A DNA stretch of 42,679 bases from Nanobdellota archaeon. GTDB lineage: Archaea > Nanobdellota > Nanobdellia > Pacearchaeales > UBA12030. The translations under genes were made by a program, and so were the position numbers. Positions 16,657 through 36,376 of the stretch are shown piece after piece. The stretch is taken from the NCBI GenBank assembly GCA_013331945.1, contig DUFK01000014.1, positions 9,234 through 51,912 on the forward strand. Direction: 5' to 3'. The notes under the pieces were generated by a model. The model was not told the DNA's origin and did not search any database. It worked only from the letters and a program-made list of their open reading frames with translations. The stretch's first letter is position 1, and every line of letters begins with the position of its first letter.

Positions 16657-17103
16657 TCACTCGACCTCTAGCTCGCCTTCCATCCCGGCTTCCTTATGGC
16701 CTTGAACAGAGCAGTAGAAAGTAAATGTCCCTCTTTTATTAGCGATAAATGTGATAGTATCCTTCTCTCCAGGTTCTATAGTGTCTGTCCTTACATTAAA
16801 AGAGGGGATACCAAAGTTATGTGAAATATCTCCATTATTCTTGAACGTTACGATGAGCTTGTCTCCTTTCTCCACAGTTATCCTGTCTGGATCAAAAGAG
16901 AACTCAGTGGCTTCAACAGTCACCCTTATGGTTTCGCCAGTGAAATCTTCATCTGTAGATCTATCTGAAGAAGTATTCAGGAGTCTTTCCCTATCCTCTA
17001 AAGGAAGCGAGATTATATAGATAAGAATGAACACAAGCATGACAATAATCAGGACAGCTACAGGGATTGTCGATTGCCCTCTTTTCACTAATATGTTTCC
17101 CAT
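16657..17103 (-). CDS. cupredoxin-domain protein with class III (type IV pilin-like) signal peptide
   Basis: Trimmed to the ATG at 17101-17103: MGNILVKRG/QSTIPVAVLIIVMLVFILIYII. The C-terminus has type 1 copper ligands: ISHNF ... FTFYCSVQGHKEAGMEGELEV (H, C, H, M). A TATA lies about 30 nt upstream. Confidence 0.75.
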   Translation of the reverse strand: MGNILVKRGQSTIPVAVLIIVMLVFILIYIISLPLEDRERLLNTSSDRSTDEDFTGETIRVTVEATEFSFDPDRITVEKGDKLIVTFKNNGDISHNFGIPSFNVRTDTIEPGEKDTITFIANKRGTFTFYCSVQGHKEAGMEGELEVE

Positions 17104-17131
17104 TATTTCTGGCTTTGAAAGCCCAAATGCA

Positions 17132-17142
17132 TTTATAAATTT
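17132..17142 (-). promoter_or_regulatory. TATA box (minus aaatttataaa) for the cupredoxin-pilin gene
   Basis: Lies 29-39 nt upstream of the ATG at 17103. Confidence 0.5.
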
Positions 17143-17236
17143 TTTTGAGAGCAAAATAAGGCAAAGTATAAAAGTGCCCCCCGCTAGAGTAAGGAAAAGA
17201 GGTCAGAAGGTCTAAAAGGCCAAGAAGGAAGAGTAA

Positions 17237-21240: not shown

Positions 21241-21362
21241 GCTCCTATGGTGTAACGGATAGCACACAACCTTGCGGAGGACCTTCTTTGCGAAAGAAGC
21301 TCCACCAAGAAAGAAGGGAAAGTGAAAAGGTTGTAATCGGGGTTCGAATCCTCGTGGGGGCA
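21241..21362 (+). tRNA. tRNA-Arg (GCG) with a 50-nt canonical intron (21278-21327)
   Basis: GCTCCTA-TG-GTGT-AACGGATA-GCAC-A-CAACC-TT-GCG-G[50 nt]A-GGTTG-TAAT-CGGGG-TTCGAAT-CCTCG-TGGGGGC-A. Anticodon at 21274-21276. Starts 5 nt after the tsaC stop. Confidence 0.8.
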
Positions 21363-21942: not shown

Positions 21943-24426
21943 TCACTCCTTATCGCTCAAGCCAGCCTCGCGCAGGAAGAATAAGCATTCCGCATCTGGC
22001 ATGTTCGGCGAGTCGATAAGTTTTGCGACCCTGCTGTCTTTCTTTCCTTTTCTGAAATATAATCTGTAAGTTGAATTATGTACAATAAATCCATTTGCAA
22101 TGTAATTCTCATTCTTAGGCACGCTTAGATCAAAGAGTGGCTCACTATTTGCTTTCTCCCTAATACTTCTTATCTTCTCGAATCTTAGATCTCCATTAAG
22201 AAGTGAAATTAAGAATTCCATCTTTCTTTTGATCTGCATATCTTTAATCTCAGTTCTCATTAAAGTATTTACAGCTGCGCGCAATTCTCTTACATTCACA
22301 TATTGGTAACTTTCCGGTCTATGCTTGATAATCTTTGAAGGAACCAGGCCAGCATCTTTGAGTAGATGCCATAACTCTTTTCTTTTTACAGGAGTCATCT
22401 CTTTGGTATAAGTATTACTGCAATAGTTTACCCATCCCTCAAGCAGCTTTTGCTTATCCGTTGCTGTAAAACCGATTCTTGTATAATCAAAAACATCTCT
22501 ATCTCTTATGTCTAGATGTGTATGTTTTTTCTTTCCGACATCAAGGCGGAGATGGCTTCTTACTCCAAGTCTAAGCAATAATAGCTGTATACGTTTCAAA
22601 ATTTCCTTATCTTTCTGTGCAAGCGTGATTCTCGGTCTTTTCTTGCTGATGTAGCCCTCTGCATCAGAAAAGCCCTTTATGAAGGCTGCGATATGCTCTT
22701 CTTTGCTTTTTCCTATATAATCGAATAAGTCAACGAAGAGTTTTTCAAAGAGCTCTTTTATTGCTACTGAGTTTATATTCAATGTATAGCAATTCTTGCC
22801 CCCCATCTTTGTTATGCCTCCTTCTACATTGAACATTTCCTTAAACAACTGCCTATAATTTTCCAAAACCTCAAGCCTTTCATCCCTAAATCTAAGCCCA
22901 GATTTCTCAAAATTACCATCCCCTAAGAAATAGCCTAGTATTTGCGCTATCTGTGGCACTAAAATTTCCGACATAATTATGTTTCTATGCTTGTGTGTCT
23001 CATGTAAGGCAACGTGTTGAACAAGATGCAATCCAAGATAATTCTGCAAGCTGTCTATTACCGGGCTATAAGTTGGATATTCTTGATTTAGAACTCTTCT
23101 AAATTGTCTTGGGGTTATTCCAATCTTCTTACAGACTTCTTTTCTTGTAACATTGTTTTCCCTTAGCTTCTCCTTAATGACTTTTTGGCCTTCTTTAGAA
23201 ATCTTCTTTACAGTCTTAACCGTGATTGCTGGCAGCTTCTGCTCCTCTCCCTCTATTTCTAACTTTCTGGCCATTAAAACAAAGTCTCCATTTTTTAGAT
23301 TTCTGGCTTCTTCTTCTTTAACTGAAAAGTCTTCAACCAAGAAGAATCTATGGAGTGGAGAGGCTTCTATTGTGCTTCCTGCTTTAATTTCATACACTTT
23401 GTTGATGGTAGGATTAACAAATCTTGCATCATTTTCTGCTGCTTCAAGCTTCATCCTGCTGAAATTGGCTGCCATTAAAGAATTATTCTTGTTTAAATCC
23501 ACTATTGCCCTGATTCTGCCATCTGAAAGTTGGATAAGGGTATCGGAAGTAAGACAGGCGTGCCCGATGATGTTCCCTCCAACGGCCGCTGTTGGATCTC
23601 CGAAAAGCATGTCTGGCCTTGACATTACTTGGTTTGTGATGTAAATCGCCAGGTTGTATGAATCTGCAAGCTTCTGCAGCTGATGTAGGTGCTGATTAAG
23701 CTTCTGCTGCCTATCTGCCAGCATTCCTCTGCCGACAAATTCACTTCTGAAAAGATTCATGATAGAATCCACGATGACGAGCTTGATAGGATTTCCGCCG
23801 TTTATCAAGTCTGAAACTTTTTCTGCAAGAAGCATTTGGTGGTCTGATGAGAATGCACGTGCGACGAGAATCTTTTTCAGGGCTTCTTCAGGATTCATCC
23901 CGTAACCTTTTGCGAGCTGTTTGATTCTCTCTGGCCTGAATGTCGCTTCTGTATCGATATAGACTGCCATCCCTTCTGCACCACTCTTCGTCTTAGGGAG
24001 TTGTACAGAGCACGCAAGTGAATGTGCAACCTGTGTCTTTCCGCTTCCGAAAGCGCCGAAAGCCTCTGTTATGGATTTGGTCTCAACTCCTCCCCCGAGC
24101 AGGCCATCAAGATTCTTGCTCCCTGTTGTTATTCTAAGAACTTCCTTTCTTTTTTCTAAGAACTGGTTGGCATCAGTAAATCCTAAATCAAGCCCCTTCC
24201 TTGCAGCAAGTATCGCTTTCCTTGCAGTGCTCTCTGTGAGCTCGGCCATCTGTGAAAGTGCGCGCGGAGAAAGAACAGCAATGCTCATAAGGTCTACGTA
24301 ACCTGCAGAAATCAATCTCTTTGCTGTAGCCTCGCCAATCCCGGGCAAGTCTGTAAGCTCAAGCTCTGGCTCTTTCTGCTCAGCTTGCTCAACTTGTAGT
24401 GGCTTTTCCTCAATTTTATCTGGCAT
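21943..24426 (-). CDS. radA: DNA repair and recombination protein RadA, interrupted by an intein
   Basis: HhH N-domain (LTDLPGIGEATAKRLISAGY), Walker A (GAFGSGKTQ), Walker B (LVIVDS), then ...AVGGNIIGHA / intein / STYRLYFRKGKK... The track start is a TTG (24471); the ATG at 24424-24426 (MPDKIEEK) is preferred. Confidence 0.92.
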   Translation of the reverse strand: MPDKIEEKPLQVEQAEQKEPELELTDLPGIGEATAKRLISAGYVDLMSIAVLSPRALSQMAELTESTARKAILAARKGLDLGFTDANQFLEKRKEVLRITTGSKNLDGLLGGGVETKSITEAFGAFGSGKTQVAHSLACSVQLPKTKSGAEGMAVYIDTEATFRPERIKQLAKGYGMNPEEALKKILVARAFSSDHQMLLAEKVSDLINGGNPIKLVIVDSIMNLFRSEFVGRGMLADRQQKLNQHLHQLQKLADSYNLAIYITNQVMSRPDMLFGDPTAAVGGNIIGHACLTSDTLIQLSDGRIRAIVDLNKNNSLMAANFSRMKLEAAENDARFVNPTINKVYEIKAGSTIEASPLHRFFLVEDFSVKEEEARNLKNGDFVLMARKLEIEGEEQKLPAITVKTVKKISKEGQKVIKEKLRENNVTRKEVCKKIGITPRQFRRVLNQEYPTYSPVIDSLQNYLGLHLVQHVALHETHKHRNIIMSEILVPQIAQILGYFLGDGNFEKSGLRFRDERLEVLENYRQLFKEMFNVEGGITKMGGKNCYTLNINSVAIKELFEKLFVDLFDYIGKSKEEHIAAFIKGFSDAEGYISKKRPRITLAQKDKEILKRIQLLLLRLGVRSHLRLDVGKKKHTHLDIRDRDVFDYTRIGFTATDKQKLLEGWVNYCSNTYTKEMTPVKRKELWHLLKDAGLVPSKIIKHRPESYQYVNVRELRAAVNTLMRTEIKDMQIKRKMEFLISLLNGDLRFEKIRSIREKANSEPLFDLSVPKNENYIANGFIVHNSTYRLYFRKGKKDSRVAKLIDSPNMPDAECLFFLREAGLSDKE
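22075..23556 (-). mobile_element. RadA intein (494 aa) with LAGLIDADG homing-endonuclease domain
   Basis: Starts with Cys (CLTSDTLIQLSDGRI) and has a block B-like SPLH. Two dodecapeptide motifs (LGYFLGDGNF, IKGFSDAEGY). Ends ...NGFIVHN followed by the +1 Ser. Boundary codons were verified on the sequence (tgt at 23554-23556, aat at 22075-22077). Confidence 0.88.
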
Positions 24427-24522
24427 TTTCCCCTTCCCTATTTTCCCCTTGCTGGATGAGAAAGGCGGCAAAAACTTATAAATTTATGCGTGATTTTTGG
24501 CTATTTGTTGCGTGGTTGGAGG

Positions 24523-24534
24523 AAGGTATAAAAA
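24523..24534 (+). promoter_or_regulatory. BRE/TATA element aaggtataaaaa
   Basis: Ends 22 nt upstream of the ATG at 24556. Confidence 0.55.
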
Positions 24535-24555
24535 CCATCCCCAACAACAGATTTT

Positions 24556-25056
24556 ATGGGATTATTTAAGAGGAACCCCAATAAAGAAGAGGGAAGAAGA
24601 GGGAGGGGTCTCGAAGATACGATCGTGCTCGTAGTAGGAATTGTAGCTTCAATAGCCATGGCGATTACAATTATTTCTAGCCAGTATAATCTTAGAAAGA
24701 AATTTGAAAAATCCGATGTTGATTATTCACTGAGCGGGTATACTGAGAAAGGGGGAAAAGTTACAGGAGCCTTCAACAAAGCATTTGATCAAGGCAGAAT
24801 TACAGTGCAAGACTTGTACTTCGTACATGGTAAAATCAATGATGCTGGTGGTTGGCTGACACGAGCAAGGCAATTTTTCAATCGGCAGAAGCTGGACAAG
24901 GCATTTGATTGTGTGATAAATGCAAATAGTGAGATAGATAAAGGGAACCAGAGATTTAAGGGAAGACCAGAGCTTCAGAAATATTTTGAACCTGCAAGAG
25001 CTGCTGTTCTTAAGGTAAGGAAAGAACTAAATGAATACAGGAAATTAGTTAAGTGA
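24556..25056 (+). CDS. hypothetical protein, N-terminus MGLFKRNPNKEEGRRGRG followed by one TM helix (possible class III signal)
   Basis: 166 aa. ...GRRGRG/LEDTIVLVVGIVASIAMAITIISS, then a helical soluble domain. Confidence 0.6.
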   Translation: MGLFKRNPNKEEGRRGRGLEDTIVLVVGIVASIAMAITIISSQYNLRKKFEKSDVDYSLSGYTEKGGKVTGAFNKAFDQGRITVQDLYFVHGKINDAGGWLTRARQFFNRQKLDKAFDCVINANSEIDKGNQRFKGRPELQKYFEPARAAVLKVRKELNEYRKLVK

Positions 25057-25071
25057 TTTCTCTCACTCTTC

Positions 25072-26064
25072 TTACTCCAATCCAGTAGCCTTGCTCAATT
25101 CATCTATCAGGGCAACAATATCTACCGCATTTGCTGAATTGATGACAAATTCTATTCTGTCCATCATCGCGTTCTTCCTCACGCGGCCATCGAACATGAA
25201 TTCCTCTCCGAGTAGCTTTTCGCGGAGCTCTTCCTCCTGCACTGCATTACTCCTTAAGTCAGATACTTCATCCTCACGCAGATTATAGAGCTTCCTCACT
25301 GCATCAAGAAAACCTATCGCTCTCACGCTTGCGGTGCCATCATCGATGTACAGGTTGATGATTGGAAGGAATTTTTCCTTGACTTCTTTATGCACGAGAC
25401 AGTAATATTTCCCATCTGACTCTGTAACTCTCTTTTTGCATTCAGGGCAGGAGGGAAAAAACTTTAGGGGAAACGCCTGCACTATCGTTGCCCGCAGGCT
25501 AGTTCTTTCGCCATCCCTAAATTCAGAAATCTTGGAAGAGGAAGCACTGCTGGGAGAAGTTCTAACATTTTCTATCACCTCATCACTATGTTCTATCGAA
25601 CTTTTTCCGCCGAGGTGCAACTCTTTCATATCAGTGCCACGCACATCAGCCTTCTTAAGGAAAATAACGTTGCCTTCTTCAAGCCTCTTCTCCTCCAGGA
25701 GGGCGGTATGCATCGTGTCCCATAGGACAACGCGCACAGAGCCAGTATCATCGGCGAGAATAAAACTTCCAATCTTACCTTCCTTGCCATCTTTTTGCTT
25801 ATAGGTTTTCACAGGATAAATCCTTGTAATCTTCCCGAGGATATCTACATTGCGCATGCCTACCATGAGTCCAGAGACCTTGACGCGTTGCGCATCGAAC
25901 TTGATTCCAAGCTCGCTTGCAACGATGAGAGAAGCTCCTTCCAAGGAAACCAGACCTCCGAGAGAGATTTGCTTCTGTTTGATGCGTTTCTCCAATTCCT
26001 CCTCAGAAAGCCCGCTCTCTTTCGCAACCCGTATTACAAACTCCTTATATCTTGCCTGCATCAT
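25072..26064 (-). CDS. replication protein A (ssDNA-binding, OB folds plus zinc ribbon)
   Basis: 330 aa. OB fold (VDILGKITRIYPVKTY....G..GKIGSFILADDTGSVRVVLWD), then CPECKKRV....GKYYCLVH. Confidence 0.8.
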   Translation of the reverse strand: MMQARYKEFVIRVAKESGLSEEELEKRIKQKQISLGGLVSLEGASLIVASELGIKFDAQRVKVSGLMVGMRNVDILGKITRIYPVKTYKQKDGKEGKIGSFILADDTGSVRVVLWDTMHTALLEEKRLEEGNVIFLKKADVRGTDMKELHLGGKSSIEHSDEVIENVRTSPSSASSSKISEFRDGERTSLRATIVQAFPLKFFPSCPECKKRVTESDGKYYCLVHKEVKEKFLPIINLYIDDGTASVRAIGFLDAVRKLYNLREDEVSDLRSNAVQEEELREKLLGEEFMFDGRVRKNAMMDRIEFVINSANAVDIVALIDELSKATGLE

Positions 26065-26137: not shown

Positions 26138-26971
26138 TCAGCTATCACGTATAGAGAAGGCAAAATTGAACTTTAGCTCTCCGAATTTATCCACTCCATC
26201 TGTAAAGAACACTTTTCTCTTAGAACTTGCCTCGAAGATAATGAAGTCTCCGTCTTTATTCACGACTACATTAAAACTCTTGAACTTTTCAGAGTCTAAA
26301 GAAGAGATGACGCAGGCGTACACATCCCTCTCTTTTTTACATTGCCCCATAGACTTCTTGCCTTCGCCATAAAGAGAGTAAAATTCAGAGAGGGAGAAAG
26401 GCAACTCCACACTGATTGGAGAATTGCTACTATACTGAAATTTTGGTAAGGAGTATTCCAAGCTTTTTTTAGGGGTTACTGTTAGAACCTCTTCGGAAAG
26501 TTTTATATCGAAGCCACTTTCAGCCTTGCCTGTGACGACTTTTGAGAGAGAAGTTGGGGGGATATAGAGTAAATCATTACTGCTCCAGGTTGTTTCATAC
26601 TTACCTACAGAATCTTTGAGGTACATCTCAAATCTGGATAGGAACTCCGCCTCAAACTCATTTTTTGGAGCAAGGGTACATTTAGAGTCGAACACTCTCC
26701 CATAGATGCCTGAAACAGAACATCTGCCCTCGGTCGGCGGATTTTCCGCGAGTTTGAAAATGGATTGGTCTGAAGCCAAACGTGTTGACTCTTCCAAATA
26801 AAATTGTGCCTCTCGGGCCTCTGATTGGATAGCCAGAAGCGTAAGTGGGCTCAAAACCTCATCGGCAATCTCTCCACGGAAGACAACACCTGCATAGATG
26901 GCGTAGACCGTTACAGCGATGGCTATGATTAGGATTCCGAATGCGAAAGTCGTTCCTTTTTTATTTTCCAT
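26138..26971 (-). CDS. class III signal peptide (pilin-like) protein
   Basis: 277 aa. MENKKG/TTFAFGILIIAIAVTVYAIYAGVVF. Last gene of the minus-strand operon. Confidence 0.7.
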   Translation of the reverse strand: MENKKGTTFAFGILIIAIAVTVYAIYAGVVFRGEIADEVLSPLTLLAIQSEAREAQFYLEESTRLASDQSIFKLAENPPTEGRCSVSGIYGRVFDSKCTLAPKNEFEAEFLSRFEMYLKDSVGKYETTWSSNDLLYIPPTSLSKVVTGKAESGFDIKLSEEVLTVTPKKSLEYSLPKFQYSSNSPISVELPFSLSEFYSLYGEGKKSMGQCKKERDVYACVISSLDSEKFKSFNVVVNKDGDFIIFEASSKRKVFFTDGVDKFGELKFNFAFSIRDS

Positions 26972-26993
26972 TCTCCTGTTCGTAGCTCCCAGA

Positions 26994-28472
26994 CTAGCCC
27001 GCGATCAAGACAATTGCAGATTTTTCTGGAGCTATATCATCTGTTGAGCATTTAAGGTAATTGATAGATGAAAGGATCTTCTTTTCGTTCGGGTCAAAGA
27101 AAGTATTCTCACGATTTATGTTGGCGCTCATTATCGATCTTCCAGTCTTGCCTTTATCCTCCACCTTGTTCCCTAAGCAGCAGACACCGTCTCCGATTAG
27201 GTCTGGGGATATTCCAGCAGAGATTCCACAGCAAACGTTTGGATCATTTGGATTGGTTGATGCAGGATTACATCCAAGCTCTTTTTTCAGCATATTCACG
27301 CTGGGATCACATCCGTCACTCTCGAATAATAGGGAGTTACATCCCGGAGAAAGATAGCTGCAATATTGGTCGCCGAAACCAAAGGAGCTGTGAGAGAATT
27401 CATGGAGCAATGTATCTAGACTAGTTGGGGATTCTGAATCTCCCTGAAAGATGGGGAAGATGAGATTAAATTTATCCGGCTCATACCCTAGTGCATCCAG
27501 TTTCTTACGGACAAATCCAGCCCATTCCAGCTCCCCAAGATTGTATTCCTCGAATGCAAAGAGAGAACTGCTAGGATCATCATTTCCTTGAAAAGCTGTG
27601 CTGAAATCGTTTTTAGTGAAGACATTTACATTACCGATCTTGGAATAGACTTTGCTTCTGCAATCCTTTAAAGGGAGATTATCGATAAAGAAGTCAACTA
27701 TCTTCTTCCCCTCTTTATTTGCAGCGTCTTGAGATTCCCATTCGCCAGCAGGCACTAATAAAAGTTCTATCTTGTACTTTTTCTCGGCGGGAGAAAGAGT
27801 GGAGCCTTCCCTGCCTTGCAAAGGTTCCGATGCCCCACTCAAGGTCTGCGAATTGGAGCCAGTATCGGAGAAGCTTTTTACATTGCACATAGTATTGCAT
27901 TCTTCAAAACTTTTTTCTTCCAGGCAGGAATTGTATGATTCCTTGAAGCTAAATTTAAATTTTGGATGTTGTATTACGGAGACTCGGGGCGTGAGGGGCG
28001 GTGATCCAGTTGGTGTCAAAATAGATTGCCGAGAGGGATTGCCGCTTTGTGGCTGCTCAACCCAGTTGTAGTTTATTTCACTCCCATCTGGAAATTCTAC
28101 CTTGAATGCATAGCATTCTCCATAAGTCCTCTCGAGTGCTTCATTTACTCTATCTTTAATGAGCTCTTCAGGCACATCAGCCTCGACTTTTGCTTTATAA
28201 ATCGAAAAAAACTCAGCGAAAGTCATCACTGTTTTTGGCGAATGATCCACTTCTAATTTAAGGGAGGTTTTCAATAACGATTCTGCTGGAGAGCTGTCTT
28301 CAAAGCTGAGGGCACTTTTAGTCTCGAATTCTTTCTTCAGGAAGAATGGAAAGAAGATATGCGTGACTACCAGAAATGCAAATATAATTCCTGCCAAAAA
28401 GAAGATGGCTAGCATCGTTGCGAATGCCGAGCCCATTATCCCTCGTTTTTCCGATTTCATATTTGATTTCAT
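26994..28472 (-). CDS. pilin-like N-terminus fused to a putative zinc metallopeptidase domain
   Basis: 492 aa. MKSNMKSEKRG/IMGSAFATMLAIFFLAGIIFAFLVV. The LLHEFSHSSFGFGDQYC motif (HExxH at 27390-27404) resembles HEFGHSFGGLADEY-type zincins. The C-terminus is Cys-rich (CCGISAG...GVCCLGN). Confidence 0.65.
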   Translation of the reverse strand: MKSNMKSEKRGIMGSAFATMLAIFFLAGIIFAFLVVTHIFFPFFLKKEFETKSALSFEDSSPAESLLKTSLKLEVDHSPKTVMTFAEFFSIYKAKVEADVPEELIKDRVNEALERTYGECYAFKVEFPDGSEINYNWVEQPQSGNPSRQSILTPTGSPPLTPRVSVIQHPKFKFSFKESYNSCLEEKSFEECNTMCNVKSFSDTGSNSQTLSGASEPLQGREGSTLSPAEKKYKIELLLVPAGEWESQDAANKEGKKIVDFFIDNLPLKDCRSKVYSKIGNVNVFTKNDFSTAFQGNDDPSSSLFAFEEYNLGELEWAGFVRKKLDALGYEPDKFNLIFPIFQGDSESPTSLDTLLHEFSHSSFGFGDQYCSYLSPGCNSLLFESDGCDPSVNMLKKELGCNPASTNPNDPNVCCGISAGISPDLIGDGVCCLGNKVEDKGKTGRSIMSANINRENTFFDPNEKKILSSINYLKCSTDDIAPEKSAIVLIAG

Positions 28473-28942
28473 CTTTTTTTGACTAATATTTCGATATCTA
28501 AAGTTCCTGGATGTACTGTGCCTTCGAGATTAACTGCCACATATTTCCTAGACTTACTGCAGTAAGGAGCATTTTTCTCCTCATTGAACACACAAAGTGG
28601 CTCCAAGTAATCAAATTCATCTGTCTTAGCCACAATACTTGCATCCAGGACAGTTAAATTAAGTTTAGCTCCGACTGCATCTGATGAGAGGCATTTTTCA
28701 AGTTCTTTCGAGTCGATTTTGGCGAAATCTATAACTCCAACATCCTCGTAAAAACAGGTTCCTGCTCTTTGGGAGAAAATGGCTGCTTCTATGGGAGTTA
28801 CGTCTATAGCAGAAACTAGGATAGCGATAAAAAAGGAGACTGCAAGAGCTAAGGGCAAAAGAAGAAAAAGTAGCCTGGGAATCCATAGCATACCTTCTGC
28901 TACATCCCCTTTTTTATCATTAAGCAGGTTTTTGTTTAACAT
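28469..28942 (-). CDS. possible pilin-like protein
   Basis: 157 aa. MLNKNLLNDKKG/DVAEGMLWIPRLLFLLLPLALAVSFFIAILV. Overlaps both neighbours (4 nt and 23 nt). Confidence 0.55.
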   Translation of the reverse strand: MLNKNLLNDKKGDVAEGMLWIPRLLFLLLPLALAVSFFIAILVSAIDVTPIEAAIFSQRAGTCFYEDVGVIDFAKIDSKELEKCLSSDAVGAKLNLTVLDASIVAKTDEFDYLEPLCVFNEEKNAPYCSKSRKYVAVNLEGTVHPGTLDIEILVKKR

Positions 28943-29327
28943 TTATTTCCAGTGTATTTTCAGTAGATTTTTTGGTGATCTCTTTATTCTCGTTCAGGAC
29001 TATTTTGTAAGATGTGGCTGATAAGAGTTTTGATTTTTTGATCTCCAGCTTTTTCTCTTTTTCATTTACCACTATATCGAAATTTTCTCCTTCGACTAGG
29101 GCCTTGTTCAGATTAAATGCGACGGCAGCGTCTGGATCGGAATTAAAGGCTGCGTCCAGCCATAATGCCTGCGATTTTGAGGCGAGGTTTAGTTGGAGTT
29201 TTTCTCCGTGGAGAGAGGAGTAGATAAAATATAAAAGGGAAGCACCGATGATCGCAACTATAATCAGCTTGATTATCTCATTATACAGCAATCCCATAAC
29301 TCCTCTTTTATCTTTCATCAGTCCCAT
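28920..29327 (-). CDS. class III signal peptide (pilin-like) protein
   Basis: Trimmed to the ATG at 29325-29327, 1 nt after the upstream stop: MGLMKDKRG/VMGLLYNEIIKLIIVAIIGASLLYFIY. Confidence 0.65.
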   Translation of the reverse strand: MGLMKDKRGVMGLLYNEIIKLIIVAIIGASLLYFIYSSLHGEKLQLNLASKSQALWLDAAFNSDPDAAVAFNLNKALVEGENFDIVVNEKEKKLEIKKSKLLSATSYKIVLNENKEITKKSTENTLEINVKQKPA

Positions 29328-29328
29328 T

Positions 29329-30417
29329 TTATGCTGCCCCCCCAGTTTCACCGGTTTCTTCATCTGCATAGTATTTCTTCCACTGCTGGTAGAAGCTCAA
29401 AATTCTTGATTGATAATCGCAGGTTGTTCCCGATTTCCCAGTATTATAGACGCAGAAGATGCACTTCCATTTTCCTTCCTCATCTCTGAAATTTCCAACG
29501 CAGGAGGCATAAGACCCTTCAGCCCTTCCTGAAGCCTGCTCATATGCGCTTCTGAGCGTTTTTGCGGTGCACTTCAACTGCCCTTCATCACTGAATACAT
29601 TGTCTCCAGAACACTTGCATCCTCGCTTGCAAGAAGTGGGCCATCCGCATCCGGTGAGAGCACTTTTTCCGACAGAAGTGCATTTATTGTTTGTTCCCAT
29701 CCCGCTCTCGAGTGATGCGAATGATGCGATAAGTGCAGGATCAATTCCTTTCTGAGAGGCATAATCTTCAGCGAGCTCTTTCCTCGTCTTATCAGATTTG
29801 AATGCCTTGCTTTCGTACGCCTTGACAAAGTTGGAGCTTGGAAGTTCTGTGCCTGCAGATACTCCCGGGCCAACTACAGGTGAAGTTCCTCCAAGACCTG
29901 CATCTCCATCTACATCATCAATATCCGTTCCAGCCTTTCCTGCTTTTTTATCTCCGCTTATCAGAACATAACTCGCATCCTGTGACAAGTAGACATCATA
30001 AGGCCCCTCACCGAACTCAACCTTGTTCTTGTTCCCTTCTGAATCCTGTATTTTTACATCCTTGAATACTATTTTGCAATATCCCTCTTGCTCGCAATCA
30101 GTGCTTCCGAACCATCCATTCTTGCAAAGGCATAGGCAAGAAGCTCCGGAGCAGGAATCAGGGCTTGCTCCCTTATCAGCTCCTTTATCAAAGCCTTTTA
30201 TTGTCCACCCGCTTCCGACGTAAAGGACAAAAAAGCTTGGCTGCTCCCCTGTTTTGAGTTTCTGTATCTCTGTGATGAGTGTGTTGAAGTATTCCTTCGT
30301 AACTCTTCCCTCTGTTTTAGATAGGTAGCTGGCAGTAGCGAGAATTATGAGTGCAATGAGCATCAGCAGCAGAATTATTTCAATAAAATTCTTCCTCAGC
30401 ACACCCTTTTTTTCCAT
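29329..30417 (-). CDS. pilin-like N-terminus fused to a lytic-transglycosylase (SLT)-like, Cys-rich domain
   Basis: 362 aa. MEKKG/VLRKNFIEIILLLMLIALIILATASY. The C-terminal part, GIDPALIASFASLESGMGTNN...GKSALTGCGW, resembles the SLT catalytic E-S motif region (Glu codon at 29707-29709). Confidence 0.6.
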   Translation of the reverse strand: MEKKGVLRKNFIEIILLLMLIALIILATASYLSKTEGRVTKEYFNTLITEIQKLKTGEQPSFFVLYVGSGWTIKGFDKGADKGASPDSCSGASCLCLCKNGWFGSTDCEQEGYCKIVFKDVKIQDSEGNKNKVEFGEGPYDVYLSQDASYVLISGDKKAGKAGTDIDDVDGDAGLGGTSPVVGPGVSAGTELPSSNFVKAYESKAFKSDKTRKELAEDYASQKGIDPALIASFASLESGMGTNNKCTSVGKSALTGCGWPTSCKRGCKCSGDNVFSDEGQLKCTAKTLRSAYEQASGRAEGSYASCVGNFRDEEGKWKCIFCVYNTGKSGTTCDYQSRILSFYQQWKKYYADEETGETGGAA

Positions 30418-30479
30418 TAAAGATAGAAGGAGAATTATTTTTTAAAGGTTGTTAAGAGGGGAAAAGAAAAAGGAAGAGA

Positions 30480-30674
30480 TTAAGGCAGGTTCTTCAGGCC
30501 CTCTCCGGCCCCAGATTTCGCAAGCCCGAGCATCTCGCCGATCTTTCCGAAGATCTCCCGGAAAGTTCCTGTAGTGAAGAGGAGAACGATAACAAGGATA
30601 ATCAGAATGATGATTATAGTGACAATCGTATTGGTTGGGAGGGATGTGCCTCTTTTGGCTTGTTTAGAAGGCAT
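30480..30674 (-). CDS. mini pilin-like protein (64 aa)
   Basis: MPSKQAKRG/TSLPTNTIVTIIIILIILVIVLLF. The ATG lies 1 nt after the upstream stop. Confidence 0.65.
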   Translation of the reverse strand: MPSKQAKRGTSLPTNTIVTIIIILIILVIVLLFTTGTFREIFGKIGEMLGLAKSGAGEGLKNLP

Positions 30675-30675
30675 T

Positions 30676-31023
30676 TTATTCTGGAATTATTTTTGGAGTT
30701 TCTCCAGTGCATTCTATGAATTGGCATTTCACCCCAAGGCCAGGGCAGTTAAATCCGCCTTCCTTACCCGTTATCTTTATCTCTTTGCAGAATGCGATTC
30801 CAGATCTGGTCTGACATAAGCTCTCACACTGGGCTTTCACTACATCCTCGCTCGCAGTGCCAGGCCTGTAGAATATCTCCTTGATCTTCCCTACAAGCTG
30901 TGCCATTCCGCCTGCAAAAAATGCGGCTGAAATGACAAGAACTAGCAAGGCGATGATTACGATGATTATGGTATTTGTAGAAATCTCTACTCCTCTTTTA
31001 TCGTTTAGCGGTCTTAGCTTCAT
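30676..31023 (-). CDS. class III signal peptide (pilin-like) protein with Cys-rich head
   Basis: 115 aa. MKLRPLNDKRG/VEISTNTIIIVIIALLVLVISAAFF. Has 6 Cys in the C-terminal 60 aa. Confidence 0.7.
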   Translation of the reverse strand: MKLRPLNDKRGVEISTNTIIIVIIALLVLVISAAFFAGGMAQLVGKIKEIFYRPGTASEDVVKAQCESLCQTRSGIAFCKEIKITGKEGGFNCPGLGVKCQFIECTGETPKIIPE

Positions 31024-31036
31024 CTTCCTCTTTTCT

Positions 31037-31249
31037 TTAAGATTCTAAACCCTGGCTGTTTTTAAAACTTTTCATTAGGGGAATTACCAAAGCGCCCGGT
31101 GCTGCTGGTGGTACAGGTGGCTCTCCCCCGAATACGCCGAATACTGGCTTGAGCAAAAAGGTGTAGAGTGCCCAACCGACAATCAAGAGAACCGTGATTA
31201 TCAAAATCCACTTCACAATTATCCCAGCTCCTCCTGATTCTTCTGACAT
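31037..31249 (-). CDS. small single-TM protein
   Basis: 70 aa, MSEESGGAGIIVKWILIITVLLIVGWALYTF... No K/R-G motif, so it is not clearly a pilin. Confidence 0.5.
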   Translation of the reverse strand: MSEESGGAGIIVKWILIITVLLIVGWALYTFLLKPVFGVFGGEPPVPPAAPGALVIPLMKSFKNSQGLES

Positions 31250-31284
31250 TTTCTTTTTCCTTTATCTCTTTTCTCTATACCTTT

Positions 31285-31443
31285 CTAACGCCCAAATCTC
31301 AAGATATCAAATATCCGGTCTATAAAACCTACTCCTTTTCCTTTGAGAAAGAACAAGATGAGGAATAAGACTACAAGAACCAAGAGAGCAAGAATCCACA
31401 TCGCTGTACTGCTCTCCACAAATCCTTTTTTATTTTTTGCCAT
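31285..31443 (-). CDS. mini pilin-like protein (52 aa)
   Basis: Not in the track. Hand translation: MAKNKKG/FVESSTAMWILALLVLVVLFLILFFLKGKGVGFIDRIFDILRFGR. Confidence 0.55.
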   Translation of the reverse strand: MAKNKKGFVESSTAMWILALLVLVVLFLILFFLKGKGVGFIDRIFDILRFGR

Positions 31444-31508
31444 GGTTTTGTAGCTCCTTTTTCTTCCTTGGTGCTTTCTTTGGTGGAGCTTTCTTTTTAA
31501 GAAAGGTC

Positions 31509-32417
31509 CTATGGAAGGCTCTCAAGAGAACCGCACAATTCCCCCAAGGTTTGGGCATTATATGTGGTTAAGATAACTTGGGAGCATCCGGCTTCATTAC
31601 CATTACAATACCCTGCGGCAAATACTTGATCTGTCTCTGCATTATATGCCTGATAGCCTATCACCCCTAAAAGAGATACAAGAGTTACTATTGCCCCCGC
31701 AGGGGTTTTCATTATAGATCCAATCGCCCCACCAACTGCCTTTCCACCAGGTACTTTACTGCCTAAAAAGAAAGTTCCGCCTACAGCGCCAACATCTTTT
31801 GCTAATAGATTCCACGCATCCTGAGATTCAAACCTAAAGAAGACGACGGCATAGTCTTGATCTGTTCTGATGGGTGAGATTTGAAATCCAGATGAGATAT
31901 CTGCTCCCTCCTGATCTGTGAAGTATTCTAAGTAAGTAATCTTTTTTTGGGGGATTTTTGTTTCCTTAAGATAACTTCCGAGAGAGATTGTTTTTGGGGA
32001 TTTTTGTATAGCGCCGCTGAATTTTATTGTGGAGCATATCAAACAAGAGGATTTCGCATTCGAAAGTCCAAAACTTTCACCTGTATCAAGAAAGTCGACC
32101 TTTCCTCTTCCAAGCATATCCCAACAATCATACATCGCATTCGCAACTGTTTTTTTAATCTCTTCTTCGTTCGTCGTTTTAACTCCTATCGGTTGGGTCT
32201 TGCACTGCAACTCTGGCTTTACATCATCTGGAAGCTGGTTTATTCCCCACAATCCCCTCTTCACGACAGATTCCTTGCATGCTTCCTTATCCAGTATTGC
32301 TGGAGTCTTGGCATAGAGCTGATAGATGAATACTCCGAATACAAGAAGTCCTGCAAGGCCAATCGTCCAGAGGACTACCTCATGATGTTCTTGCCCTCTT
32401 TTTTTTCTTTCTTGCAT
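31509..32417 (-). CDS. class III signal peptide (pilin-like) protein
   Basis: 302 aa. MQERKKRG/QEHHEVVLWTIGLAGLLVFGVFIY. Has a second hydrophobic stretch near the C-terminus. Confidence 0.6.
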   Translation of the reverse strand: MQERKKRGQEHHEVVLWTIGLAGLLVFGVFIYQLYAKTPAILDKEACKESVVKRGLWGINQLPDDVKPELQCKTQPIGVKTTNEEEIKKTVANAMYDCWDMLGRGKVDFLDTGESFGLSNAKSSCLICSTIKFSGAIQKSPKTISLGSYLKETKIPQKKITYLEYFTDQEGADISSGFQISPIRTDQDYAVVFFRFESQDAWNLLAKDVGAVGGTFFLGSKVPGGKAVGGAIGSIMKTPAGAIVTLVSLLGVIGYQAYNAETDQVFAAGYCNGNEAGCSQVILTTYNAQTLGELCGSLESLP

Positions 32418-32424
32418 TTTGCAC

Positions 32425-32532
32425 CTAGATTATTTTAAGCAGCTTGAATATGAAATAGAGCACAAAGCCGGCGATGAGCAGCACAAGTATCAGTGTTATG
32501 ATTCCCTCTCGTGTCAGGCCTCTCTTTTTCAT
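32425..32532 (-). CDS. mini pilin-like protein (35 aa)
   Basis: Not in the track. Hand translation: MKKRG/LTREGIITLILVLLIAGFVLYFIFKLLKII. Its stop lies 7 nt before the next ATG. Confidence 0.45.
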   Translation of the reverse strand: MKKRGLTREGIITLILVLLIAGFVLYFIFKLLKII

Positions 32533-32565
32533 ATTCTCTTCTCTCGTTTCTCCTTCTCCATTTCC

Positions 32566-33222
32566 CTACATAGTGTAGTGACTCATATCATTCAGGTACT
32601 GTAATTTAAAGTTCTTTCCTTGATTCCAGCAAGTGATACGGCTTACAGAGGCGTTGCCTATGGTGAAGTTCTTGAAATATCTTAGCCCTCCGAAAAGCTT
32701 TCCGACAATGAACTTTGCAGGAGCTTGATGAGTTACAATTACGATCCTCTGGCCCTCATTCTGCTTCACGATGCGCAGGAATGCGTCCCAGCACCTTTTC
32801 TCTGCGTCTGGAAAGCTCTCTCCAAGAACAACTTTAGATGGATCACCATCATCATATTTAGAGAACCAATTCTTCGCGATAGGAAGGAATCTGCTCTCGA
32901 GCTCTTCCTGTGTCATCATCTCATACTTGCCCATGTCATGCTCTCGCAGGGCTTTGTCAAATATGATCTTATAGCCATTCAAATCTGCGAGAGGCTTTAT
33001 AGTCTCAACCGCTCTGCGCAAATCACTGCTATATATCGCTGCGATCTTTTCCTTCTTCAAGCGCTGGGCAAGCTTCTTTGCTTGCTCCTTTCCCTTAGCA
33101 CTGAGACCAAGATCGTTCTTTGGATCACTGCTGAAGATATCTTTCAGATTGAGCTTGCTCTGTGCATGGCGCACAAGAAATACTTCTGTGACTTCTTTCT
33201 CTTTTGATTTTTCCTTTTTCAT
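32566..33222 (-). CDS. histidine phosphatase (phosphoglycerate mutase-like) family protein
   Basis: 218 aa. FLVRHAQSKLN (RHG-type motif), SSDLRRAVET, EHDMG and VTHQAP. Confidence 0.8.
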   Translation of the reverse strand: MKKEKSKEKEVTEVFLVRHAQSKLNLKDIFSSDPKNDLGLSAKGKEQAKKLAQRLKKEKIAAIYSSDLRRAVETIKPLADLNGYKIIFDKALREHDMGKYEMMTQEELESRFLPIAKNWFSKYDDGDPSKVVLGESFPDAEKRCWDAFLRIVKQNEGQRIVIVTHQAPAKFIVGKLFGGLRYFKNFTIGNASVSRITCWNQGKNFKLQYLNDMSHYTM

Positions 33223-33263
33223 TTTTTCCTCTTTCTTAGTGCAGGTTCTTTTTAAAGAAAGTG

Positions 33264-35411
33264 CTAAGTCCCTATAGGTCCGATCTGATTCATTACAAGA
33301 GATGCGAGCAGACTTAAAACTACTATGGTGATGAATGCTACAATAAGGTAGAAGAACATCCCGCGATAAAGGGCCTTGGATATCTCATTCTTCTCAGTGA
33401 GCTTGTCGCTTCCGTTCTCTATCACAACTACAGTAGCACTCAGGATGAAGATTATCTGTATCAGATACAAGCCGATGGCGATCTGCAAGAAATAAGGCGG
33501 AATCATCTTCTCTATCTCAAATAATGTGACTATTCCCGCGGCTCCGCCGAGTCCCTCTGCTCCTCCCGATTCAAGTCCAGTCAGGAGCGTGGAAAGCTGA
33601 TTGATGATGAGAGTTATCATCACTGCAAGCCCTACAACAATCCCTCCGAGAACAGGTGCCAAAAAGGAGACATTGCTTTTCATGCTCACAACGACATCTG
33701 CGACAAGGTCTTTCAGCCTCTCTTCTATTTTGTGGATATTCTTTGCATGCTCTGAAATGCTCATAACGCTTTCAGAAGCAATCTTAAGACTTTTCTTGAC
33801 TCCTTCAACAAGTATGAACATCGAGGTCTTGATGAGTGAGGATGGGTAGAAAGTGATTGCCCCTCTTTGCCTTCCGAAGATCGCTTCCTGCACACTGGCG
33901 CCATTCTGGATATTATTGTTGACCATCATGAAGAATCTTCCTGTCGGAGTTCCACGCAGGACTTCTGCAACCCTTCCGAATGCCATTTCTGCTGGCACTC
34001 CTGCGGCAAGCCTATTCCCGAGCTGGAAGAGTGCAGAGCTGAATTCATCTTCCAGTTTCTTAGTTTCTTGTCTTGTCTTTATGAGGTTCTTGGTGCGCAT
34101 TCCGTAATTCACCGCAAAGAAAAGGCCAAGTGAAAGCGGAATAAATAGGCTAAGAAGAGTGGCGCCAACTCCAAATGGCCCAATCTGCTTTCCGCCAACA
34201 TCCTTGAAATCAAAAAAGCTTCCGATGAATGGAAGAGTGAAATCGTGCAGGCCTATCGCAGAAGAGAGTGCAGGGGAGAGCATCAGCAAGGGCAGGATTC
34301 CTAGCACAAAGAAAGGGAGTGCGATGAAGAAGGCAATCCATGTCGGCGTAGAACTCTTGTATTCTGCATATCTCGGATGTGCCTCCAAAAGTTCTGGCTC
34401 TCCATATCCTGTAGGTCTTGAAAGCAAGATCTGCGATGTAAGATAATAAACAAAGAATGGAATTATCACATTAAACATTATAATCACATGCTGCCAGGTC
34501 ATCAATCCACCAAGAAGTGCAGAGGCAAGGGGAAGCAGGGCAAGAGCCAGCGTAGGAAGCACAATCCCGAGCATGTACACATTTGTCAGAGGCGCCTTGA
34601 TGGAATGAGAGTAAGTGAGCATCTTTTCCTGCACTCCTTCGAGCATCACAGAAAGGCTTTTCTCTAAGGTTGCAACTCTCTTGCTTTCTACCGGCTCGTA
34701 GAGCGAGGATTCAATTAGGTGCATCGCCTCTGCGAATTCCAGATTCGATTCGCGCCATCTTTCAAGATAAGCATCAATGCTATCTCTCACTGTCGGATAT
34801 TTTCCTACTTCAACATCCCAGAATATCTTCTTGAAATCCAAAGAGAGGGGAGCTTGCAGATGCTCAGAGGTAAATTTTACAGCTCTCTCTAAATTCGGGG
34901 TGTGCTTCATATAGATTACGATGAAAAGCAATGCCTGAATCAGCTGCGATGAGGCCTTGAGCTGCCACTTCTTTGCCTCCATCATCGGAAAAGTGTAGAG
35001 CCAGTAATACAAGAATGCAGAGAAAGCGATTCCAAGCACAAGATACATGAAAGCGAAAGTTCCAGTGAAAACGTAAAAGGCAGCGAATGCAAAAACACTC
35101 AGCACAAGAGCGAGAATGAACATGTTGATGGCAAGGCTTGCTGCCTCTTCTGGCTTTAATTCAGAATGGATCGTTTCCAGGGCTTTTCGGAACTTTGCCG
35201 CATCTTTGGCAGATGGCTTTACCTTGATGATGGAGCCACTTATTTTTGCAGCCTTCTCGTAGCGGCTTAGGGGCTTGAATGCCTCTTGCTTGAACTGCAC
35301 ATACTCCTGAGTGAAGTTGACTCTATCTGGATTCCCGGGATCGTAGTCAAGCCCGCGCTCAAGCTCCCGCTCATACTTCTTAAGAATATCATCCACTCTC
35401 CGTGATGCCAC
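33264..35411 (-). CDS. type IV pilus/archaellum platform protein (FlaJ/TadC/PilC-like polytopic membrane protein)
   Basis: 715 aa with many TM helices and two cytoplasmic helical domains. Located near the FlaI-like ATPase. GTG start at 35409-35411; there is no nearby in-frame ATG. Confidence 0.7.
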   Translation of the reverse strand: MASRRVDDILKKYERELERGLDYDPGNPDRVNFTQEYVQFKQEAFKPLSRYEKAAKISGSIIKVKPSAKDAAKFRKALETIHSELKPEEAASLAINMFILALVLSVFAFAAFYVFTGTFAFMYLVLGIAFSAFLYYWLYTFPMMEAKKWQLKASSQLIQALLFIVIYMKHTPNLERAVKFTSEHLQAPLSLDFKKIFWDVEVGKYPTVRDSIDAYLERWRESNLEFAEAMHLIESSLYEPVESKRVATLEKSLSVMLEGVQEKMLTYSHSIKAPLTNVYMLGIVLPTLALALLPLASALLGGLMTWQHVIIMFNVIIPFFVYYLTSQILLSRPTGYGEPELLEAHPRYAEYKSSTPTWIAFFIALPFFVLGILPLLMLSPALSSAIGLHDFTLPFIGSFFDFKDVGGKQIGPFGVGATLLSLFIPLSLGLFFAVNYGMRTKNLIKTRQETKKLEDEFSSALFQLGNRLAAGVPAEMAFGRVAEVLRGTPTGRFFMMVNNNIQNGASVQEAIFGRQRGAITFYPSSLIKTSMFILVEGVKKSLKIASESVMSISEHAKNIHKIEERLKDLVADVVVSMKSNVSFLAPVLGGIVVGLAVMITLIINQLSTLLTGLESGGAEGLGGAAGIVTLFEIEKMIPPYFLQIAIGLYLIQIIFILSATVVVIENGSDKLTEKNEISKALYRGMFFYLIVAFITIVVLSLLASLVMNQIGPIGT

Positions 35412-35443: not shown

Positions 35444-35534
35444 CCTCTTTTAGTTATGGAAAGAAAACGAATACGGATTTTAAATCCTTTTGTGCCGAGA
35501 AAAAATATATAAACGTATAGCCTCTAAAGAAATA

Positions 35535-35948
35535 ATGGGACTTTTCGGGTTTGGAAAAAAGAAGGAAGCGGAGAACGCGAAGAAAGGAAAAGCGGTGGCA
35601 GATGATCGTGCCAGAACGGATGCTTATGATGAGATACAGGCTATTCTAGGCCGGATAGAAAAGACCTTTGATGGGAAGGCAAAACATGTCTTAAATGTGG
35701 CTGCATCCCGTGGGGCAGGGACAAAAACTTATACTGAAAGAGAAATCATAAAATTAAGAGCACCATTACTAGATGCGCGACATGCTCAACAACGAGGAGT
35801 CTTTCGCAATATTTTACCCAACCTCCTTAAGTTTTCTGAGCTATTGAGTAAGAGCGAATACTTTATGTCAGACGGAACCTTCTTGAGGGATATCGGGAGG
35901 GATATAACTGCCATAGAGCAGAGCCTTAAGAAAGGGAAGTATATCTGA
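35535..35948 (+). CDS. hypothetical helical protein, N-terminus MGLFGFGKKKE (orphan family)
   Basis: 137 aa from the ATG at 35535. A TATA (aatatataaa) lies about 25 nt upstream. The track ORF's upstream extension starts at a non-ATG codon. Confidence 0.6.
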   Translation: MGLFGFGKKKEAENAKKGKAVADDRARTDAYDEIQAILGRIEKTFDGKAKHVLNVAASRGAGTKTYTEREIIKLRAPLLDARHAQQRGVFRNILPNLLKFSELLSKSEYFMSDGTFLRDIGRDITAIEQSLKKGKYI

Positions 35949-36013: not shown

Positions 36014-36376
36014 ATGGCAATTGAGCTAGGCGAGATTATAAATGTAGAGGCTAAGCTGAGCAGAGAGATCAATAAAATCAGGGAGCTGCAACGTCATGAG
36101 ATTTATGGACGGGTCCAAAAGCATAAAGAACAAATAAGCATTTTGATTAGAGTTCTCTCCAATGCATTAAATGATCTAGGGGACTGTAGAAAGGCTATTC
36201 AGAAACAAAACTATGCTAAAGGATTAAAAGACGTGCAGAAGGCAACTAACAATCTTATAGAATGCAGTAAATTCAGTTTTATTTTAGGCTTAGTTGGGAC
36301 TAACATTAGATACTTCACAAGAGAATGCGCACGCATACAGGTGTCTTTGGAAAATACTATAAGAACAGCCAGGTAA
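36014..36376 (+). CDS. hypothetical helical protein
   Basis: 120 aa, all-helical appearance, AT-rich. Its 3' end converges on the ATPase gene, 12 nt away. Confidence 0.55.
   Translation: MAIELGEIINVEAKLSREINKIRELQRHEIYGRVQKHKEQISILIRVLSNALNDLGDCRKAIQKQNYAKGLKDVQKATNNLIECSKFSFILGLVGTNIRYFTRECARIQVSLENTIRTAR

Follow-up and report, generated by a model that had tools for sequence, protein, structure and literature searches.

A conserved operon of Pacearchaeota- and Woesearchaeota-type archaea as a candidate type IV filament machine with muralytic heads on minor pilin-like proteins

Several lines of earlier work bear on type IV filaments of DPANN archaea and on the enzymes that these archaea may direct at other cells. 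Makarova et al. (2016) recorded that nanoarchaea have a clade-4F ATPase for which pilins 'could not be identified', a 2026 preprint put loci of DPANN archaea in System 1 and in subsystem 4A of the type IV filaments (TFF), and a groundwater study separated candidate phyla radiation (CPR) bacteria from DPANN archaea by their pili, taking the components of type IV pili to be 'missing in DPANN genomes'. Modular pilins and tip-located complexes of minor pilins are established in bacteria (PMC10191384), and for the extracellular lytic transglycosylases of Pacearchaeota and Woesearchaeota, bacterial walls have been put forward as the target (PMC8204110, PMC9723730). We here analyze a window of 42,679 nucleotides (nt) from a Nanobdellota archaeon (contig DUFK01000014.1, positions 9,234–51,912); "window" means this whole stretch, and the coordinates below count within it. 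It contains an operon of pilin-like genes headed by the gene for a large membrane protein, and we lean, with modest confidence, towards reading the locus as a standard type IV filament (pilus-like) machine of Pacearchaeota/Woesearchaeota-type DPANN archaea that is equipped with wall-lytic modular minor pilins.

The operon is composed of 13 minus-strand genes read in one direction from 35411 down to 26138, which encode in order a membrane protein of 715 amino acids (aa) and proteins of 218, 35, 302, 52, 70, 115, 64, 362, 149, 157, 492 and 277 aa (Table 1; the small and pilin-like proteins are called p plus their length). An earlier reading made from the letters alone, called below the sequence-only reading, had described this single-strand arrangement with spacers between a 23-nt overlap and 65 nt, and recomputation from the coordinates of the open reading frames (ORFs) gave the same 13 ORFs and the same range. 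These genes, including the ORFs of 35, 52, 64 and 70 aa, have been called independently on the identical ENA contig (L081), and a 41-nt overlap of p362 with p149 vanishes when the 135-aa start MGLMKDKRG, as called there, is adopted.

Class III signals were searched for by a rule-based scan, which demands K/R-G/A and then, after at most 12 residues, a hydrophobic window that is uncharged and 15 or more residues long. The scan flagged 9 of 10 non-overlapping ORFs of the operon versus 5 of 52 ORFs in the rest of the window (Fisher p = 9e-7), and the 35-aa ORF also fits the class-III-like pattern. The sequence-only reading had seen K/R-G followed by about 20 hydrophobic residues in ten of the twelve distal ORFs, and this enrichment upholds it for the most part, although the 70-aa ORF carries no K/R-G. 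A basic leader, G or A at −1 and a hydrophobic segment of about 20 aa are thus present in 9–10 operon ORFs, which makes these putative filament subunits with predicted cleavage.

We fetched 80 related loci (L001–L080) around the family of the 715-aa protein, called here the platform family, and searched them by tblastn with the window proteins. The K/R-G/A leader and the hydrophobic segment are kept in the orthologues of each pilin-like family, and a logo built from 663 class-III-like ORFs of these loci gives the leader signature N-K-K/R-G/A, with N at −4 in 48% and K at −3 in 71% of the ORFs. Because neither residue was demanded by the search rule, the signature suggests that the peptidase recognizes a motif specific to this clade.

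The core machinery accompanies this block of genes. The sequence-only reading had pointed to an enlarged FlaI-like ATPase and a dedicated A24 peptidase, and both were confirmed above the respective Pfam cutoffs (Table 1), the ATPase as a T2SSE protein with its long N-terminal extension and the peptidase with both Asp motifs (..TDLKKREVPD.. and ..AGGDAKLL..). For the ATPase, whose Walker A sequence is GTRSSGKTS, a FlaI match is present and TadA/CpaF matches are best: the TadA-family (2.6e-37) and FlaI (1e-35) models of NCBIfam both remain under their cutoffs (123.5 versus 550 for FlaI), and sequence matches in PDB are CpaF (9e-25), Archaeoglobus fulgidus GspE2 (3e-21) and FlaI (8e-15). No archaellin (FlaA/B), FlaF/G/H, FlaC/D/E, FlaX or Che family was found among the window ORFs scanned against Pfam, and, with the FlaI model so far below its cutoff, an archaellum can be rejected, as had been held from the sequence alone.

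About nine hydrophobic segments can be made out in the 715-aa protein, together with two soluble loops, each of about 130 aa. Some of its homologues have been named 'Flp pilus assembly protein TadB' by JGI, and T2SSF appears below threshold, with an E of 0.0017 at best, in 4 of 18 homologues; searches with the family alignment against NCBIfam gave nothing, and sequence and profile searches of PDB gave nothing usable. Its residues 136–690 (about 555) are homologous to a 'secretion system protein' on a Haloterrigena plasmid (tblastn 2e-21, blastp 2e-34), which directly follows a T2SSE ATPase that is 36% identical to the window ATPase (4e-71). On the basis of the topology, the TadB names, the linkage to the ATPase gene in 61 of the 80 loci and the homology to this haloarchaeal pair, we treat the protein as probably an analogue of the FlaJ/TadC platform.

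Across the clade, both the gene order and the pilin block recur. More than 3,000 relatives of the platform family are found in databases at 50–74% identity, mostly labelled Pacearchaeota or Nanoarchaeota, and the family occurs in at least 596 species-representative genomes of Pacearchaeota/Woesearchaeota-type Nanoarchaeota. The recurring order is ATPase, platform, pilin block, A24 peptidase, RPA and RadA, and from the pilin block to RadA it is kept at about 50% platform identity; L001, L003 and, as far as its contig extends, L002 are collinear with the window. By tblastn, matches were obtained in the 80 loci to the ATPase (61), p302 (60), the A24 peptidase (40), RPA (39), p52 (33), RadA (28), p115 (26) and the N-terminal module of p362 (20), and for the ATPase, the peptidase, RPA and RadA these are the loci in which the gene is no more than 10 kb away from the platform gene. 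Blocks were counted in 58 loci whose sequence extends 7 kb or more on the pilin side: the median is 8 pilin-like ORFs per block, and 48 of the 58 have at least 7. Ten pilin-like genes are therefore normal for the clade, and the sequence-only reading of an 'oversized' system has to be given up for it. That reading held that characterized archaeal loci carry only a few pilin genes, but loci with several pilin genes are known elsewhere too: 11 genes make up the Epd cluster, and at least 5 minor pilins per clade-1 locus were reported by Makarova et al. (2016).

A hydrolase-like head is carried by p362. In its AlphaFold2 model (mean pLDDT 80), a helix (residues 4–56) and a beta-sheet (63–157) are followed by a linker, which is disordered, and then by a helical head (pLDDT above 90). 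When the head was compared with PDB by Foldseek, the top nine matches were goose-type (GH23) lysozymes with probability 1.0, followed by FlgJ, MltE, MltF and AtlE; a word-indexed homologue search with the head, and PDB sequence and profile searches with p362, had given nothing usable. In an alignment of 23 proteins, Glu237 of the head is invariant and Ser238 is conserved in at least 90%, and the modelled head accordingly has the predicted features of a GH23 lysozyme-like fold with a catalytic Glu in an E-S motif. By an exhaustive search of representatives, 59 representative clusters share the domain; these relatives are multidomain proteins also having Amidase_2/3, NlpC/P60, M23, VanY, SLT or CHAP, and about 17 of the 59 are multi-hydrolase proteins of very large size whose N-termini are class-III-like.

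The p362 head itself is common only to the window, L001 and L002, and in most loci the p362-family protein is headless and of 150–220 aa. Other muralytic heads have been found repeatedly on pilin-like ORFs of related blocks. At the Pfam threshold these are SLT heads in L003, L006, L038 and L047, a GH73 glucosaminidase head in L004 and an M23 head on a separate pilin-like ORF of L003; SLT heads were further detected by jackhmmer in L010 and L054, and a protein with GH23-like and M23 domains lies among pilin-like ORFs of L084, a short contig. The N-terminal signature of the p362 module is common to the head ORFs of L001, L003, L004, L006, L010 and L054. The muralytic heads, which occur in only about 10 of the 80 loci, are therefore accessory and not core, yet they have been grafted repeatedly onto pilin modules. 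As a separate observation, large class-III-like proteins near the platform gene of L013 (6449–9889) and L072 (12129–13880 and 14376–16238) have a GH20b domain together with a carbohydrate-binding module (1147 aa) or repeats of DUF4215, so that non-muralytic heads have also been grafted onto the leader.

The sequence-only reading had spoken of two hydrolase-like heads, on p362 and p492, and a lysozyme fold is indicated by the model for the former, whereas the latter offers a motif only. The Cys-rich C-terminal region of p492 has no Pfam match even at E 10 and no sequence match in PDB; its motif HEFSHSSFGFGDQY resembles HELGHAVFGLTDEY within a weak M64 match of protein P0141, and HExxH is the only mark of a putative M64-like zincin head. 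Since the p492 orthologues of L001 and L003 are only 180–185 aa long, this region is unique to the window organism.

On these grounds the following course of events can be proposed. The A24 peptidase would remove the short basic leader after K/R-G from about ten prepilin-like proteins, and the TadA/CpaF-like ATPase with the 715-aa platform would extract the subunits from the membrane and polymerize them into a filament. The shaft would be built from the small headless or small-headed proteins p52 and p115/p64, and p302, p362, p149, p157, p492 and p277 would serve as minor pilins, priming assembly and coming to lie at the tip or close to it. There p362 would display its GH23 lysozyme-like domain outside the cell, where the domain may bind and probably cleave the peptidoglycan of a bacterial partner or prey; bacterial peptidoglycan is the likely substrate because archaea lack murein. 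The histidine phosphatase encoded within the operon would stay outside the filament structure.

A further step is to regard the filament as a wall-breaching attachment device, in which the p362 family acts as a swappable tip adaptor repeatedly given new heads (G-type GH23, SLT, GH73, and GH23-like plus M23). The sequence-only reading had already suggested attachment or wall breaching, and that idea gains support from the predicted peptidoglycan-hydrolase heads on pilin-like ORFs of related loci; the device as a whole we offer tentatively, as a possible but doubtful extension of the filament reading. If it is true, the repertoire of heads would help to decide to which bacteria these archaea can attach and on which they can prey, a large part of this DPANN radiation would live on bacterial and not archaeal hosts, and the multi-hydrolase proteins, which are much larger and share the leader, would be substrates of the same machine.

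Several results weigh against a filament machine with wall-lytic pilins. The window platform-like protein matches no Pfam or NCBIfam family, and comparison of its N- and C-terminal halves by hhalign detected no internal repeat. The Foldseek scores of the p362 head are modest (E about 4e-3, TM normalized by target about 0.5), and no curated SLT or GH23 model reaches threshold for p362, whose own best match is Glucosaminidase at E 0.046; its orthologues give SLT_2 at about 0.002, under the cutoff. The small share of loci with muralytic heads, about 10 of 80, belongs here too. For p302, the most conserved protein of the block, the fold of the head was not recognized, as neither sequence nor structure searches of PDB nor BFVD gave a match. 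About half of the leader sites fit the strict four-residue FlaFind-like pattern and about half do not, which qualifies what the sequence-only reading had said of the ten N-termini. Finally, the identity of the major pilin is a guess.

Among the alternatives, the one that survives best, fairly improbable as we judge it, is a short surface-display or secretion assembly of the bindosome type or of the pseudopilus type of the type II secretion system (T2SS), in which membrane-proximal class-III-signal proteins would present or release enzymes and binding proteins. TFF machineries that handle class-III-signal proteins without making a filament are known (bindosome; preprint 10.64898/2026.04.22.720090), many proteins of our block are large-headed (p302, p362, p492 and p277), a cupredoxin encoded outside the operon bears the signal too, and the very large multi-hydrolase relatives of the p362 head with class-III-like N-termini (about 17 of 59) are unlikely shaft subunits. 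Against this, p52 and p115/p64 resemble typical shaft pilins and are conserved beside the platform gene, and families of substrate-binding proteins and ABC transporters are absent from the block in the Pfam scan. The display assembly and the pilus are compatible models and are not mutually exclusive.

The neighbourhood of recombination genes raises another explanation, namely a pilus for DNA uptake or exchange, comparable to Com pili or to Ups/Ced, that would feed RPA and RadA. The RPA gene follows 73 nt past the pilin block on the same strand, the RadA gene (21943–24471) lies on the same strand further on, past a plus-strand ORF (both genes fall within 21943–26064), and as given above 39 and 28 of the 80 loci have RPA and RadA, respectively, at no more than 10 kb from the platform gene; the neighbourhood of the Ups pilus likewise has DNA-repair genes, and DPANN archaea are thought to scavenge nucleotides (PMC8204110). 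RPA and RadA are, however, housekeeping genes, and streamlined genomes can keep gene order without a functional link; families of ComEC, Ced or DNA-binding pilin-like proteins were not detected in the scanned window ORFs, and the muralytic heads would be left unexplained, so that we consider a DNA pilus unlikely. The RadA gene is itself split by an intein having a LAGLIDADG endonuclease domain.

If the lysozyme-like, SLT, GH73 and M23 heads instead cut the wall polymer of the archaeon itself for passage of the filament, in the manner of VirB1, FlgJ or BfpH, they would be tools of housekeeping. Envelope-spanning machines of bacteria do have dedicated lytic transglycosylases, and the folds of FlgJ and MltE are among the lower Foldseek matches of the p362 head, but murein transglycosylases are 'normally absent in Archaea', which have no murein (PMC8204110), Mur-type genes are absent from the scanned ORFs of this one window, and a passage function should be universal while the heads occur in about 10 of 80 loci; we find this very unlikely. 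Scarcely credible, lastly, is that the pilin-like proteins are no pilins but unrelated membrane proteins with ordinary signal anchors beside a secretion ATPase by chance, for although no Pfam pilin family matches any of them and several sites depart from the strict FlaFind-like pattern, such a chance has to contend with the enrichment in the operon, with a motif (including N at −4 and K at −3) conserved over hundreds of ORFs, with a block fixed beside the ATPase, platform and A24 genes in dozens of genomes, and with models that start with a long helix followed by a beta-sheet (p362) or an alpha/beta head (p302).

Table 1. Features of the filament locus and associated genes (window coordinates; a slash marks the predicted cleavage position)
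Feature	Coordinates	Strand	Basis or remarks
Type IV filament assembly ATPase, 748 aa	36389..38635	-	Pfam T2SSE 57.3 bits (cutoff 24.9); N-terminal extension of ~280 aa
Platform-like polytopic membrane protein, 715 aa	33264..35411	-	Topology, haloarchaeal homologue, linkage to ATPase
Histidine phosphatase, 218 aa	32566..33222	-	Pfam His_Phos_1 8e-47
p35, single-transmembrane (TM) microprotein	32425..32532	-	Directly upstream of p302; called in L081
p302, Cys-rich-headed pilin-like protein	31509..32417	-	Most conserved of block; tblastn orthologue in 60/80 loci
p52, headless mini-pilin (putative)	31285..31443	-	MAKNKKG/FVESST.., hydrophobic helix, conserved ..LRFGR C-terminus
p70, small single-TM protein without K/R-G	31037..31249	-	Seen only in L001 and L002; called in L081
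p115, small putative pilin with Cys-rich head	30676..31023	-	KRG/VEISTNTIIIVIIALLVLV
p64, short p115 paralogue	30480..30674	-	KRG/TSLPTNTIVTIIIILIILV
p362, putative modular pilin	29329..30417	-	Pilin-like module 1-157, linker, GH23 lysozyme-like head ~180-355
p149/p135, minor pilin-like	28920..29327	-	KRG/VMGLLYNEIIKLIIVAIIG; likely start MGLMKDKRG; 135 aa in L081
p157, minor pilin-like	28469..28942	-	KKG/DVAEGMLWIPRLLFLLLPLALAV
p492, pilin-like module ~1-196 with orphan Cys-rich C-terminal region	26994..28472	-	KRG/IMGSAF..; HEFSH at residue 357
p277, last pilin-like protein of block	26138..26971	-	KKG/TTFAFGILIIAIAV
A24 prepilin (class III signal) peptidase, 292 aa	17237..18115	+	Pfam Peptidase_A24 49.1 bits (cutoff 26.5)
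Cupredoxin with class-III-like N-terminus, beside A24 gene	16657..17154	-	Pfam Cupredoxin_1 5e-14; KRG/QSTIPVAVLIIVMLVF; N-terminus also given as KRG/QSTIPVAVLIIV
166-aa protein with class-III-like N-terminus	24556..25056	+	RRG/RGLEDTIVLVVGIVASIAMAI; no Pfam match

In p302 orthologues the N-terminal K/R-G and hydrophobic segment are kept and Cys47, Cys72, Cys98 and Cys128 are invariant; the AlphaFold2 model (pLDDT 70) places the alpha/beta head after a helix at residues 10–59. Just before the p302 orthologue, a p35-like ORF of 33–47 aa is present at the same place in roughly 50 of 59 loci, with the consensus ..LIK.LLWIVFF....G.YFLLK.. and a K-G/A motif in some members only, many having none. 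The p52 gene is mostly the first one after the platform gene where it occurs, and our guess is that this Flp/EpdE-like protein is a candidate major subunit; an equally conjectural candidate for a major or abundant pilin is p115, whose family has the consensus KKG.E....TII.IILA.LVL in 26 loci and whose paralogue p64 matches the same ORFs in several loci. Orthologues of p149 were found in L001, L003 and L067, those of p157 in 5 loci with the same N-terminal pattern, and those of p277 in 6 loci, mostly as the final ORF before RPA. No meaningful Pfam match, even at E 10, was obtained for p277, p157, p149, the p492 C-terminus, a 501-aa protein or the 166-aa protein.

The histidine phosphatase, which the sequence-only reading had counted into the filament operon, is correctly identified, but it is rejected as a component of the system. 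Its sequence has no signal or TM segment, and among the 80 loci it stands at this operon position only in L001 and L002, the two closest relatives; it is thus probably a cytoplasmic, lineage-specific insertion, a passenger or local regulator and not a structural part. Further pilin-like genes had been listed at 16657, 24556 and 42587. The first two do have class-III-like N-termini, and the blue-copper cupredoxin may be a further substrate of the A24 peptidase, the 166-aa protein, which has no tblastn match in the 80 loci, being a possible additional one; at 42587 no pilin-like gene was found in either orientation, and the nearest gene there (41890–42456, minus strand) encodes a multi-TM protein with a weak DUF6057 match.

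Two plus-strand ORFs (35490–35948 and 36014–36376) lie between the ATPase and platform genes and are also called in L081. They are not counted as parts of the system because they have no tblastn match in the 80 loci, and Pfam gives no meaningful match for them at E 10. Elsewhere in the window and without a tie to the operon, we observed genes for a CofD-family protein (3729–4685; Pfam E 4e-100) and FtsZ (6048–7142). A protein of the Pup-ligase family, which is best known from Actinobacteria, is encoded in this DPANN archaeon at 8481–9773 (Pfam PF03136, E 3e-111). A tRNA gene at 21241–21362 was found by Rfam only and missed by ARAGORN, and its length of 122 nt implies an intron.

Few uncultured archaea are as abundant as Pacearchaeota and Woesearchaeota, for which no hosts are known. 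That a complete set of pilus-like genes is nearly universal in this clade is the opposite of the premise that such components are missing in DPANN genomes; routine annotation does not see the locus because neither the platform nor any of the pilin-like proteins has family matches. The locus joins the type IV filament ATPases of DPANN archaea with their extracellular GH23 enzymes two facts reported separately, in one testable mechanism, pilin-anchored muralytic heads, from which follow predictions on bacterial hosts and two reagents to work with, the p362 head and the A24 peptidase. Its interest comes from this pilin–hydrolase link and from the wide spread, and not from the number of pilin genes or the phosphatase.

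Among described systems, the Epd pilus of Methanococcus maripaludis (TFF System 1) and the bacterial Tad/Flp pili resemble the window locus in having a multigene cluster of pilin-like proteins (11 genes in Epd), in the headless Epd major pilin, which is like p52, and in the window ATPase, whose best matches are the TadA family and CpaF. Two platform genes characterize System 1, as does a large EppA peptidase that needs Gln at +1, whereas the window has one 715-aa platform-like gene, and Gln occupies +1 at 2 of 10 window sites and at 17% of sites clade-wide. With a single platform gene and no Gln +1 rule, membership in Epd/System 1 is rejected; among the families of Pfam and NCBIfam, none for pilins or Epd was matched in the window.

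The Haloterrigena turkmenica pair mentioned above, the closest annotated relative of the window's ATPase–platform pair, lies on plasmid pHTUR04 (L083, 10322–23764) and shares with the window the homologous ATPase and partner in the same order. It possibly belongs to subclade 4F of Makarova et al. Unlike the window, the pHTUR04 locus has no adjacent pilin block and is located among genes for an AAA ATPase, a DEAD/DEAH helicase, ParA and DUF87, and this plasmid setting hints at a DNA-transfer context for the haloarchaeal sister system. The RPA/RadA neighbourhood of the window, for its part, parallels the DNA-repair neighbourhood of the Ups pilus.

PilB and PilC of Streptococcus sanguinis are minor pilins at the tip that combine a pilin module with a C-terminal functional domain (PMC10191384), and the p362 model has the same two-module layout. 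Their modules are adhesive (vWA, lectin) and their class III signals are bacterial with Glu5, whereas the head of p362 is of a muralytic type, and there is no sequence similarity. Stand-alone GH23 proteins of Pacearchaeota and Woesearchaeota (described in a 2021 paper and by Vigneron et al., 2022) share with p362 the archaeal groups, the GH23-type chemistry and bacterial peptidoglycan as a proposed target; they are presented as large stand-alone proteins without mention of pili, pilins or class III signals, whereas the window head sits on a minor-pilin-like module inside an operon. The Sulfolobus bindosome (BasEF with class-III-signal sugar-binding proteins) is alike in that functional proteins other than pilins use a pilin N-terminus and a TFF core. 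A bindosome-type system is nevertheless not what the window encodes, since no families of substrate-binding proteins or ABC transporters are present in its scanned ORFs and the predicted hydrolytic cargo is encoded inside the machine's own operon.

The sequence-only reading had nominated the locus as an undescribed system, and this holds in so far as the family is essentially unannotated and a literature search on Woesearchaeota and pilins yielded only unrelated papers and no description of the operon family; the kind of system is known. Judged from gene content and comparison, what is known here would be the archaeal type IV filament system, and what appears to be new is a conserved, largely unannotated DPANN operon of that kind whose putative minor pilins carry muralytic enzymes.

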